This document shows, piece by piece, positions 15,366-28,300 of a DNA stretch of 64,000 nucleotides. Each line of letters opens with the position of its first letter. The first letter of the stretch is position 1. The stretch comes from Saccostrea cucullata (taxonomy: Eukaryota): NCBI RefSeq assembly GCF_032062105.1, contig NW_026932784.1:124001-188000 (forward strand), read 5' to 3'. Under the pieces are notes generated by a model. The model was not told where the DNA came from, made no database searches, and worked only from the letters and a program-made list of their open reading frames with translations. Position numbers and translations under genes: made by a program.

Positions 15366-17314
15366 TTTTCAGCTTATCTACATAAATCATGAAGAAAAAA
15401 AATGTTATTGCTATTATCTCGAAATGCAGTCGTGATTAACCTTTTCTAATTATTTTTTAAATATCCGTATAAAATTTTATGTCTAAGATAAATATCATTT
15501 TCTGAGAAAATTTTGAATAATTTATGCACTTACCCAAACATTATTGCACAAATTTCCAGCGAATATGTCTTCAAACTGTGAATGAAATACAAACATTCCA
15601 TTAAACGTGTGATTTTTTCCTAAAATTATAAGTTTAAAGATTGTAGTTTTAAAATCATGCTCCTTAAACGAAAAAAAACCCATTGCAAACAGTTCTTTTT
15701 CTCCTTATGCATTCTATTACTTTGCAAAGATTCTCTATTTTACTATCTATCAAGTTTTTCTGTTACCTCAAACTGTCAAAATGAAAGAAACCAGAAAAGA
15801 AGAAGACAGTTTAAGTCTCGTTTGATAATTCAAGGTAAACATTAAAGTGTCTATTTGTCTTACTCATATCTAATTCATTGTTCGTTTTCAGAGTAAATAC
15901 TTTTTTAAATCTCTGGTATACCGCCATTAAGCTTTGAAAAAATGTAAGCGATTAACAATCTTTCTCTAATTGAAATATCCAAGAAACTGTTTAAACTGTT
16001 TGTATTTTACTTTTCATAAAATTGTATGATAGGAAAGGGTTGAATTTAAATGCACTGGTAATCCTTTTGCGATTTTAACAATATAATATGTCGGTGACCA
16101 CATGATATTGAAATGTATATTTATTCGTTTAATATCACGAACCTCAGCAACTAACAGAACTAAGAAATAAGATTTGCATTGTCAACTTATCTTTCATATA
16201 TGTGCATATTAAACACACATGATTTTTAACAAATCTCTGTCCTTGTTTTCATAGTATATATTTACAAATATCAGTGTCGCATAACAGCTGAAAATTAATA
16301 ATAATCAATTTCTTTCATCCTGTGAACAATGCAAAACGCAAAGATCACAGAGAATCCACGGATCTACCTAAACCCAACCGACCTGACCCGAAGTAATGGA
16401 GGTAAATATTCTATATTGACACAAAAAACTTAACGGCGTAAACCGTGATAAAAAAGAAACAATAACCTGAAATAGGTATAAAATGTACCCTTCATAATTC
16501 GAAGATACAATGAAGATTGTATTTGCAAACTTTATACTCATTTTCAACAGTTTGCTGAAGACCTTTAACAGCATTTTCATTTTAGGAAGCTACATTTGTT
16601 TGAAATTTGATTGTACTCAAAACATGTTCTTGTGAACATTATCAGTGAGGAGAGATCAATGTCATTTGTACTTCATAAATAGGGGAAGCTGGCACTGGAA
16701 AAAATAAGCTTGTTCATAGGTTTATATTTCGATGTTCTATTGACTGAAGACGACAGGGCTAATAAACAACTAAATTGTTTGACAGAAAAAAAGCCTTCAG
16801 ATTTTCCATTGCCAACTTTCTTTATTTGTAGGTAATTTTGTTTTAACCTGTTTATTGCCTTAAGAAGATGTTTTAGAACTAATTCAAACCGAGGCAGACT
16901 TCTATCAGATAAGTTGAAGTTAGAAGGATTGCAGGAAAATCGTCTTTTTCTTTCAAAATTCGTCAATTCTGTGATCATTATAATGATCTTTTTAGAAGGT
17001 ATATCCTATTAATGGCTATTATTTTGGCTGACTTGTAAAGCCTTCATTTTTTATTCTTACTTTGGCTTTGGAATATTTCGTCTAACTGAACAATATAAAA
17101 CTGACACAAATTGATGCAAAACGATATTATTCTACCTGGTGCAGTGGTTAGAGATTTTTCTCCATAGTTTATTTGTAATAAGCTGATCCCATAGTCGCGG
17201 ATTCGAATCCAACTGCGGAACAAGGAGACTATTCCTTCAAACGAGACCATATAAACCAACGTCTATGGCAAGCCCTTTTACTATTTATTCGGAAATTTTT
17301 TTTTCTTTCAAAAT

Positions 17315-17675
17315 GAGAGATATCTCTCTAGCATAGAGAGATATCTCTTTAACTTATGGAGATATCTCTTTAGCTCATAGAGATATCTCTTTTACTAATA
17401 GAGATATCTTTAAACTTTAGAGAGATATCTCTTTCAACAAAAGAGATATCATTTTTTGAAAGAGAGATATCTCTTTTTGTAAGAGAGATATCTTCATAAG
17501 CTAGAGAGATATCTCTTTAAGCGAGAGAGATATCTCTAAAAGTTAGAGAGATATCTCTTTTACAAGTTTAAAAGAGATATCTCTCTTAATTAGAGAGATA
17601 TCTCTTTAGATTTTCAAAAAGAGATATCTTTCTAAGCTAAAGAGATATCTCTTTTAATGAAAGAGATATCTCTTT
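17315..17675. repeat. Left subterminal array, ~17 copies of palindrome AGAGATATCTCT at ~21-bp period
   Basis: Direct count of GATATC cores, separated by variable spacers of ~9 bp. Confidence 0.95.
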
Positions 17676-18157
17676 TCCAATCACCCTTTAAATAAAATAA
17701 TTAATTCTCCCGTTAAAAACGAAAGCGAAACAGGAAGTAATGTTTGTTAAGTCGTTCGTTTTCTGATTATTGAAAAGAAGAGGATAAAATGGACTGATTG
17801 ATACAGGTAAACAACGCTTTATTGTTTTATGCGGAAGTAACAGGATTTCAAACCAAAACGTTCCCCAATGATTGGTTCCATATTATATTTATTTCATTTA
17901 TTAAGCTCACAGGACAGCTGAGGTGGGGATATAGTTCTAATGCAAAGTCAATAAAAACAAATAGGAAATACATGTACCCAATTTCATCGATCACGGGAAT
18001 ACATGGTTGATTACTACGTCGATTAAACATAATCCTGATAGAATTAATGTTCTTTTTTAATTAATTTAGTAATCCAAAAATAAAAACGTCCAACATTACT
18101 TCTTTCATGTACACAGGGATGTATACATTCAATTTCAATATTAACTGTAGGACGTTA

Positions 18158-24897: not shown

Positions 24898-25376
24898 AAA
24901 GATATCTCTTTGCATTTAAGAGATATCTCTTTTTGCTTCAGAGATATCTCATTTAGACCCGTTTGAAAGATATCTCTTTCACTTTGAGAGATATCTCTTA
25001 AAATAAACTTAGAGAGATATCTCTTTTACTTTAAGAGATATCTCTTTAAATAGGAAAGATATCTCTCTAAGTGAAAGAGATATCTCTCTAGGTGAAAGAG
25101 ATATCTCTCTTGTTGAAAGAGATATCTCTTTAATGATTAGAGATATCTCTTTAACGTTCAGAGATATCTCTTATCACGAAAGAGATATCTCTCAAGGAGA
25201 AAGAGATATCTCTCAAAGAAAAAGAGATATCTCTCTAAGTATAAGAGATATCTCTCTAACTTTAAGAGATATCTCTTTCTTATAGAGATATCTCGTAAGA
25301 ATAAGAGATATCTCTTAAAGTTGAGAGATATCTCTATTTTTTAAGAGATATCTCTCTAAAATGAGAGATATCTCTG
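24898..25376. repeat. Right subterminal array, ~23 copies of AGAGATATCTCT at ~20-21-bp period
   Basis: Direct count of GATATC cores. Confidence 0.95.
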
Positions 25377-28300
25377 TAATTTTAAGATCAAATTTATTTT
25401 CCGAATAAATAGTAAAAGGGCTTGCCATAAACGTCCCTTATCGAAGTAGGTGCTGGCACGAATAATCCCCCACCGCTCAAATGTCTTACGTGCCGAATAT
25501 AGGTCTAAATAACACAACCCATCACCGGCAAGTGGTGGCGTCTCAGTATGACTGAATTTCGAAAGGACAATCACTAAAAAATATACGAAATGATGTAAGC
25601 CTAATAGTTACCAATAAGGGATGTACTAAAATTTACGAATGTATAGTGATTATATTCTAGAGTCGACCATTTGAATGTCTTTGAACTCAATTATATAGAG
25701 AAGAAAAATATTGCTATTAACTCGAAAAATGGTTTTTATTCAGCGGTTAATTTGATGATTTATACATGTAAATGTAACAAAAATGGTATGAAAACATTAA
25801 AATTAATGTTTTGAAAGATCAAATATAACTACTCTTCGCCTTAGGATTTAATTGAACCAAAGGAAGGAAATAATTCGCTCAGACTGGGTTATCTCGCTTT
25901 CAAAATAATTCCAAATCAATCGAAACTATACATGTATAGAAAATTTTATGTTTTTTTTTTTAAAGAAAGCATACCTTCTTTTAGTCAAAAAACACTTTTT
26001 CCTTGAACAATTATAACGTCCCACACTTGTCATTAGTAGAAGCATTGTGGGACATGGCGCAATTAATAATATCGTAATAATTTGTTAATTTTTGTCTTAT
26101 CAATCGCATTATTAATGTGATGAATTATTTTTTATGACCTTGAGACCAAGACACTACATTACAAATATTGTCAAATTGCCACTTTAAATTGTTAATAAAA
26201 GCATCAAAACAATCATCAAAATCATTAAGGATCTAAATACCCAAGTATGTACTTTAGAATTGTATTAACTAGACCGTTCATTCCACACTTTAATCAGATA
26301 TATTTCCAAAACAAGCATTGGTAATAATATTCAAAGCTATACGAGGGTCATAATACACAGTATATCATAATACATATTGAGGTATTTGATTTTATTATTT
26401 CATATTTGAAAAGTTCTATCAAAGATCTCCTAAACTAAAGAAAATTTCATAATTTTCATATTGTCTTCGCGAAGAAATCCATTTTTAAAGTAAGATGGCC
26501 ACTACACTGTGCTGAAATCAGTTTGTAAATGATCCAAGAAGATGAATTTAAGAGCGTATTTAAAAATTGCGGGGTAAATTGGGGTAAACCTTATATCTAA
26601 GATATGATTTTCTCATGTAGAAAAAAATATCTTTAACGCTGTATACTTTTCAGATAGATTCAATAATTCAGAAAGAAAAGAGTTCAAATATAACAGTCAA
26701 TGCGGTCAATTGAAATTTGTGGGGCACAAAAAAATCGACTTCATGTGCCAGATGAAATTTGAAAATTTTATTTTCATAGAAAGACATTGTTAAGATACTG
26801 AACATTTAATTGTCAAAGCAATTTGCAGAATTCTGACAAAGGAAAAATATATATCAATCTTTCAATTAGATAGGTGCCCTATTTTTTCACAAATGCTCAG
26901 AAGAGAACATTCGTTAAATGTGCCAATGGTTTATATAAAGACAAATTTTTAAACAAAATAGAAGATTTGATTAACTTGCGTAATGTATGACGAAACATAG
27001 GTGCACTTTTTTATACACTGTAGTCGTAAAATAAGATTAATGATAAAAAAATGTGGAATCAGAGAAAATGGTGTCATTATATATGATAAAAGGAAGCAAT
27101 GGCTCCAAATAAGTTTTATTAGTTTTTGTGTATTTAACGAGGTCAAATAAACATGTACATACATCCAAATGAAGATCTAGCAATGGTAAGTTTCATCTTC
27201 AAATTGCACAAAGGAAAGCTGAATAGATTTCCTGCAAAGGTTTAGTCCGAAATTTGGTAACAAGGGTTTTTTTCGTGTGCCTGACAACGCAGCTGCATAT
27301 ACGCTTAGAGTAATAAATAAGATTTTGAAGAAAAAAAGTATACAGGACTTTTTATTCACCAATATTAGCTTGATCGCAGCAACTGTGAGATCTTTTGATT
27401 CCCAAAACACATGAAAACAATCAAAGGAAGATTGTACAATCAAAGGAAGATTGGGTAATCAAATGGGAAATGATATTCATCAGTGTCTTTGGGGCATTCC
27501 TAAAGATGAGTATGCTGAGGATTTCTGCTCATAGATACAAAAATTTAAGGGTAACAGAAAATGCCCTGAGGGATTGAAACTATTAAGAATATGTATTTCG
27601 TACTTTTATTATTTTTAGATGACATGTTGCATTATTCATTGAACGACTCTCGTATTAGTGTTACAAGTGAATGTGCGCAGTAGTTTATGTTTTCAAATTC
27701 TCTATGTTTTTACGCTGCAAGGCAAACAGTTGATAGTTCTAGGAGTTGACAGTTTGACAGTGGACAGTTTGCTCCAGCAAACAGCTAAAAATGTTTTGTA
27801 ATACTTTTTACCTTTTAAGACAAACCTCAAAGCGGTCAAATATCTGATCGACTTATTCACTGAGCAGTCTAACATCGATTACTTTGGACTACTCTGGAAA
27901 CTTTTAAGTATAAAGATGTTATAAATGTATAAAAAAAAAATCTTATTTTTTACTTTCCAGGGAGAAATGCACCGATGCACTTGCAGTGTATATCATTCTG
28001 ATTTTTTTTATTTATTCTAAAATATCTTCAGTTGCATAATTTGAATGAACATGTAAATTTTCAATATTGAAAGACAAAGGCGTTCGATCTTTATAACATA
28101 AAATAATACATGATCAGGAATAATTTATAAACACGGATATAAGCTGAAACGTTCGGAAAACATCTTACGTAAGAATTCCATCCAATACTATCGAAAAATA
28201 TTAACTTCAAAGTCATTGTGTTTGTTCTTTTAATTTTCTTGATTAACATACCGGTATGGTGTAGCATAGTGTCTAAACAGTCGTTTATTCATTTTTAATG

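Follow-up and report, generated by a model that had tools for sequence, protein, structure and literature searches.

Complete families of IS3EU transposons have TA..TA termini and target-site duplications (TSDs) that are usually 6 bp long, and together with GingerRoot they form one lineage (PMC10045372; here and below, comparisons refer to the available portions of the papers cited). Seventeen of the 45 IS3EU families in Repbase are autonomous, so non-autonomous ones are common, and the alignment in Data S3 of the same paper includes four CGi entries (IS3EU-1, -3, -4 and -6_CGi). Fungal IS3EU families have terminal inverted repeats (TIRs) longer than 30 bp with TAYGG..CCRTA ends, and carry transposase and alpha-kinase genes in opposite orientations (PMC12730594). 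Of 77 GingerRoot elements, 22 contain intron-bearing fragments of host genes, and most of these 22 have no DDE motif; capture of gene fragments by the IS3EU/GingerRoot lineage is already published. The same source reports GingerRoot matches in the Pacific oyster and 6-bp TSDs in Polinton/Maverick and Ginger2/TDD as well (PMC6839031). The available portions of PMC8268682 and PMC10294476 contain nothing decisive for the comparison. Here I analyse a 64,000-nucleotide stretch of Saccostrea cucullata (GCF_032062105.1, contig NW_026932784.1, positions 124,001 to 188,000; hereafter the window), which holds an element of 8166 bp at 17264-25429. I put at roughly 75% the probability that this is a multi-copy, transposase-less IS3EU-type transposon that was pasted in trans into an old short interspersed element (SINE) and that acquired its nested repeats, about 3 kb in all, at a later stage, either in this copy itself or in the lineage leading directly to it.

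The boundaries are defined by the following features (here and below, lines without a sign carry no strand).

17132..17263, plus strand, 5' part of the split host SINE, with a tRNA-like head, from the empty-site alignment
17258..17263, left TSD copy, AACGTC, from flank comparison
17264..17295, plus strand, left TIR of 32 bp, starting TATGG, 32/32 to the right TIR
25398..25429, minus strand, right TIR of 32 bp, 32/32 to the left TIR
25430..25435, right TSD copy, AACGTC, from flank comparison
25430..25586, plus strand, 3' part of the split host SINE, from the empty-site alignment; a joint 23165->25526 between opposite strands ties it to the family of the nested SINE

The two TIRs are complementary at all 32 positions, with a mismatch at position 33, and a 6-bp match such as that of the two AACGTC copies is expected by chance at about 5e-4. 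An initial annotation had placed a perfect 32-bp TIR and a 6-bp TSD here and had stated that removal of the element restores a contiguous SINE, and both observations hold. I joined the flanks in silico with a single AACGTC and compared alignment scores of this empty site with the best of 200 shuffles. It aligns without a gap at the junction to the nested SINE at 23101-23399 (score 117 against a shuffle best of 39) and to a SINE copy near 59524-59656 (79 against 32). Five reference stretches were tried in all; of the others, one alignment spans the junction (48 against 34), one covers the right part only (54 against 37) and one failed (35 against 38). ARAGORN called no tRNA on the SINE head. 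The window has a GC content of 26-38% and is AT-rich animal sequence.

Sequencing reads add a further view of this site. I used four of the 24 runs listed, from four studies, comprising three of DNA (X1, X2 and X3) and one of RNA (X21), and set aside the other 20, which had small shares of matching words; statements about them draw on 15 of 1235 joints, 12 of 585 inserted-letter rows and 40 of 1575 variant rows. A 914-nt contig of X3 fits the window from 25430 onwards, beginning at contig letter 10, and continues to 26261. This is what the empty-site haplotype sought by the initial annotation would look like on its right side, and the contig, as judged from letter 10 onwards, is probably an empty allele in a related genome.

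The TA..TA termini, the TATGG..CCATA ends and the 6-bp TSD fit the published features of IS3EU, as the initial annotation had proposed. A TIR of more than 30 bp, a criterion taken from the fungal families, is likewise shared, and 8166 bp lies inside the 3.9-12.9 kb size range of GingerRoot (PMC6839031). Two opposed genes, here putative, recall fungal IS3EU. Unlike described IS3EU and GingerRoot elements, this one has no detectable DDE core, and its ends consist of a 32-bp TIR with long 21-bp arrays rather than 100-150 bp of TIR; unlike those of fungal IS3EU, its putative genes match no partner (alpha-kinase, TET/JBP). It resembles the gene-carrying GingerRoot of Selaginella lepidophylla (PMC6839031) in containing spliced (here putative) non-transposase sequence without a DDE motif, and differs from it in that the interior is common to many related copies and that protein searches found no host parent. 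By ends and TSD I class the element as a non-autonomous member of IS3EU/GingerRoot, not as an autonomous one, and Repbase may already contain the family.

Inside each TIR lies a subterminal array of a 21-bp unit with a AGAGATATCTCT palindrome core, which the initial annotation did not mention.

17315..17676, left subterminal array, 21-bp unit, 16.8 copies (17 GATATC), from repeat detection and word count
24900..25387, right subterminal array, 21-bp unit, 23 units, from repeat detection and word count

The two arrays hold 40 GATATC words, against 26 across the remaining window. The oyster satellite CgiSat43, which also has a 21-bp unit (PMC8268682, available portion), was considered as the array unit and rejected, as its sequence differs. 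The terminal bins (17104-17905 and 24723-25123) have depths of 800-1300, or 3-5x backbone in X1 and X3, and may reflect smaller derivatives that keep these termini, or additional families whose arrays resemble these. At 1-700 of a marine-metagenome contig (L030) lies a long array of 21-bp units whose GATATC core is similar, with no terminus in view; it may represent a satellite or one end of an element related to this one.

The backbone of the element is repeated in related genomes. Median depth of the backbone against the flanks is 337 against 3.8 in X1 (about 88x) and 263 against 11.3 in X3 (about 23x). These ratios are rough, as the depth adds up all contigs and does not give the number of copies, and I picked the six backbone and five flank bins from 30. 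The flanks are covered in two of the three DNA runs, and the 5.2 kb of backbone, including both putative genes, is far deeper than they are; the gene relics therefore belong to the backbone of the family. Flank divergence from the window is 3.9% in X1 and 7.7% in X3, so these runs may represent related species or distant haplotypes.

Within the element I count eight nested candidates in six blocks, about 2955 bp in total, which leaves a backbone of 5211 bp.

18158..18442, nested element 1, with short imperfect inverted ends and a 5-bp duplication, CGTTA; X3 has a form without it (18149->18443)
18505..18596, nested element 2, a 92-bp hairpin miniature inverted-repeat transposable element (MITE) with a 4-bp duplication, CCCA; an X1 joint (18506->18708) skips the MITE and more
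20113..20935, two nested high-copy repeats (143/147-bp tandem units; 164-bp repeats), depth 2e4-9e4 in X1 and X3; X3 has a form without them (20097->21168)
21918..22722, nested high-copy repeat with a further fragment inside at about 22255-22440; joint 21917->22745 in X1, X2 and X3, and loose ends at 22438
23101..23399, minus strand, nested tRNA-type SINE with a 13-bp duplication and 61% identity to the split host SINE, depth 7e4-9e4 in X1 and X3
23910..24560, nested MITE with 136-bp inverted arms and a 5-bp duplication, CTGAT; joint 23904->24561 in X1, X2 and X3

The earlier count of at least seven nested elements thus stands. Exact flanking duplications (CGTTA, CCCA, a 13-mer and CTGAT) accompany four of the eight, and the other four were recognised from their joints, their internal repetition or a very high depth of reads; depth reaches 1e4 to 9e4 in X1 and X3 across 20113-20935, 21918-22722 and the nested SINE. 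The first two of these blocks may be Helentron-like. Among the joints listed for the three DNA runs, five nested stretches are missing from related copies, which there retain the state before insertion. Two of the joints are present in all three runs, namely 21917->22745, which marks copies without the nested repeat, and 23904->24561, whose five ambiguous letters equal the length of the CTGAT duplication. The remaining nested-free copies are seen at 18149->18443 and 20097->21168 in X3 and at 18506->18708 in X1, the last two skipping more than the nested piece itself. No second copy with a nested element in its backbone occurs among the joints and pieces listed.

The rest of the interior contains two convergent gene relics, whose putative parts are as follows.

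17789..17806, plus strand, exon 1 of putative gene A, 18 nt from ATG to a GT donor, stop at codon 3, with GGAAGT upstream at 17733; from sequence
18798..18952, plus strand, exon 2 of putative gene A, AG acceptor and GT donor, 2-4 stops per frame; from splice motifs and RNA reads
24574..24642, minus strand, exon 1 of putative gene B, ATG at 24642 and a GT donor, with GGAAGT-type motifs at 24744 and 24843; from sequence
22917..23040, minus strand, exon 2 of putative gene B, AG acceptor and GT donor; from splice motifs and 47-49 RNA reads at 22948 and 22967
21190..21353, minus strand, putative exon of gene B, AG acceptor, donor non-canonical in this copy; RNA weak, depth 1-3 at the places listed
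19770..20019, minus strand, putative exon of gene B, no donor identified and 4-5 stops per frame; four listed positions carry 46-47 RNA reads
19466..19647, minus strand, putative last exon or 3' region of gene B, AATAAA on the minus strand at 19137; RNA depth 53-133

The initial annotation described these as spliced, and it is plausible that such interior stretches are spliced genes. Both ATGs lie where it placed them and GTAAAC follows both first exons (after 17806 in gene A and after 24574 in gene B); no splice joint in X21 RNA is among the listed rows. The relics have AATAAA near their ends, at 19137 (minus) and 19335 (plus). The ETS-like GGAAGT said to stand upstream of each is indeed present, at 17733 on the plus strand and as the reverse complement at 24843, and is modest evidence because there are 27 occurrences of it in the window, seven of them inside the element. 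In X21, the nine listed positions inside the segments have 29-133 reads and nine backbone positions outside them (17869-23545) have 0-6. Exon 2 of gene A has 29 reads at 18844 and 18850 against 6 at 18749-18773, and both variants listed for it are silent in one plus-strand frame. Against a clean exon model stand the 86-87 reads at 19661 and 19665, on the intron side, the low depth at 21190-21353 and the lack of a splice joint among the listed rows. Only 44 of 11877 X21 reads are 99% alike to this copy, so the RNA comes from others.

Stops occur in every frame of every putative exon save one frame of the 18-nt exon, which together with the perfect TIR and TSD agrees with the earlier picture of pristine termini around a decayed interior. 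With 4-5 stops per frame in a 250-nt exon, there are more than decay of 2-3% alone could produce; either most of the family had already lost functional genes, or the true frame is masked by frameshifts. Other copies lack some of the lesions, as at 19612 and 21244, where one base differs. The two first exons also share the same 14 nt around the donor (17793-17812 on the plus strand and 24567-24580 on the minus strand). I considered whether the two gene starts are inverted duplicates and rejected this, as only these 14 nt align and the arms share no more similarity.

I was unable to identify a transposase in the element, in agreement with the initial annotation. Three of four IS3EU DDE core motifs from the published alignment scored below the shuffle maximum and the fourth (27 against 23) lies inside the nested SINE, and Pfam gave two weak matches (E 0.1 and 4.8) in six read-through frames of the element, with no polymerase, integrase or capsid domain among them. 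Thirty frame pieces of the putative exons gave five weak Pfam matches, all below cut-offs (best E 0.0064). No HECT domain was matched in these pieces or in PDB sequences, where decay or frameshifts could mask one, and no paper linking HECT to IS3EU DNA transposons turned up in a literature search. Word searches found no relative of one gene B frame among proteins of 322-2000 amino acids, nor of exon 2 of gene A. A phmmer search of one minus-strand frame against 1.8 billion representatives returned 105 matches, all to the nested repeats at 20113-20935 bar one extra piece at the SINE, and PDB sequence searches of the exons gave nothing under E 0.6. For the exon at 21190-21353, the likelier frame was compared with Pfam and PDB only. 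These protein negatives are weak because they cover few frames of frameshifted DNA.

Several likenesses noted by eye were discarded. One to the YqaJ exonuclease hinged on the one-base difference at 21244, which is absent in most X1 copies, and those to alpha-kinase, the HECT C-lobe and a KDZ-type cysteine motif found no support. Among nucleotide searches, Rfam gave 104 matches, none reaching the gathering score; a 29-nt TIR had no match in metagenomes, and a 16-nt TIR had 28 matches in viral contigs, none longer than 17 nt. Patterns combining TIR and array gave 4, 2 and 1 matches, six of them unrelated and one being the bare 21-bp array of the marine contig, and transposase-motif patterns gave 0 and 0 in viral contigs. 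The autonomous copies for which the initial annotation suggested a search were not found, in collections that are mostly prokaryotic or viral and include no host genome.

From the ends, the duplication, the repetition and the nested-free relatives, I infer an enzyme, a role for the arrays and an order of events. An IS3EU transposase would be supplied in trans by another element and would recognise the TIR together with the phased palindromic arrays, whose 21 bp correspond to about two helical turns. The target would be cut with a 6-bp stagger inside the old SINE, host repair would create the duplication, and the nested elements would arrive afterwards, either in this very copy or along its lineage. 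Between the window copy and five of the six backbone pieces from X2 there are 31 differences in 1480 letters (2.1%). If this divergence equals decay since insertion, both TIRs and TSD copies (76 bases) would remain untouched with a probability of 0.20; as intact ends are thus expected one time in five at about 2%, no recent second jump of the composite is needed. Several points weigh against this explanation. All six X2 pieces together differ at 61 of 1772 letters (3.4%), which lowers the probability of intact ends to 0.07. The runs may be of other species, depth is not copy number, and nested-bearing copies could hide beyond the 15 of 1235 joints; a composite subfamily confined to the genome of the window may exist. 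The 6-bp TSD is known from a single locus, the Pfam, word, phmmer and PDB searches matched neither relic to a transposase or to any other family, and the collections searched yielded no autonomous partner that shares these ends.

Some of these same points favour what the initial annotation had proposed, namely a recent jump in trans of the complete 8.2-kb composite, which would have carried its nested elements along and so spread them. Its outer TIR and TSD are perfect while the putative exons carry stops, the probability of 0.07 would suit it, and the species of the window may differ from those of the runs. Yet five nested stretches are absent in related copies, the outer TSD is no more perfect than the four nested ones checked, and a second backbone copy with nested elements is lacking among the joints and pieces listed. 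That a dead, multi-copy backbone lacking a transposase moved in trans is a reasonable and supported part of that proposal; recent movement of the composite is improbable, and the dispersal of nested elements by it is not supported. Polinton/Maverick and Ginger2/TDD also make 6-bp TSDs (PMC6839031), and the element has no transposase to classify by, so another superfamily, or an unnamed group, could be invoked. This is very improbable given that TATGG..CCATA is the published IS3EU signature (PMC12730594), and that six frames of the element contain no polymerase, integrase or capsid domain in Pfam.

A different question, compatible with IS3EU-type ends, is whether the backbone is of Pack type, its relics being captured pieces of host genes. 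The 22 of 77 GingerRoot elements with host fragments, where the DDE region is often lost when fragments are captured (PMC6839031), make this a real if lesser possibility, as does the lack of a transposase motif here. Against it, the two relics run towards each other from starts close to the inner edges of the arrays and each has its AATAAA, which looks like the layout of an element's own genes, and protein searches of few frames found no host parent. The idea that they are cargo stays unproven, the relics being family-wide in related genomes. I lean, by a modest degree, to the relics being the worn, internally deleted remains of the IS3EU two-gene layout rather than newly captured host genes. 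What little expectation is left after the native and captured origins falls to relics that are not genes, or to something else.

Elsewhere in the window, long open frames on the minus strand at 5985-7232, 13324-13773, 31215-33077 and 33172-33744 have no Pfam matches. Those of 415 and 620 amino acids may be paralogues, as judged by eye from a short similar motif, and the element, which lies between the long minus-strand frames, may be intronic or intergenic. A 568-amino-acid open frame at 35240-36946 (minus) matches RVT_1 and GIY-YIG, the layout of a Penelope-like retroelement. Two tandem long-exon Sulfotransfer_2 genes lie at 49936-51051 and 54986-56158 (minus; E 1e-36 and 3e-38), and ARAGORN makes a single tRNA-Glu(TTC) call at 48557-48629 (plus).

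With its split SINE and the probable empty allele in a related genome, the multi-copy, transposase-less transposon described here illustrates IS3EU-type boundaries with unusual clarity. Its phased 21-bp palindromic subterminal arrays are candidate docking sites for the transposase of a little-studied superfamily. A more far-reaching idea, and a long shot, is that this is a transposase-free IS3EU family, found across related species, with two convergent, spliced and transcribed genes of no known family that are kept because they help the element, for example against silencing. If intact members do encode two unknown proteins under selection, the finding would have greater significance; at present, the element is a decayed copy with ordinary nested insertions.

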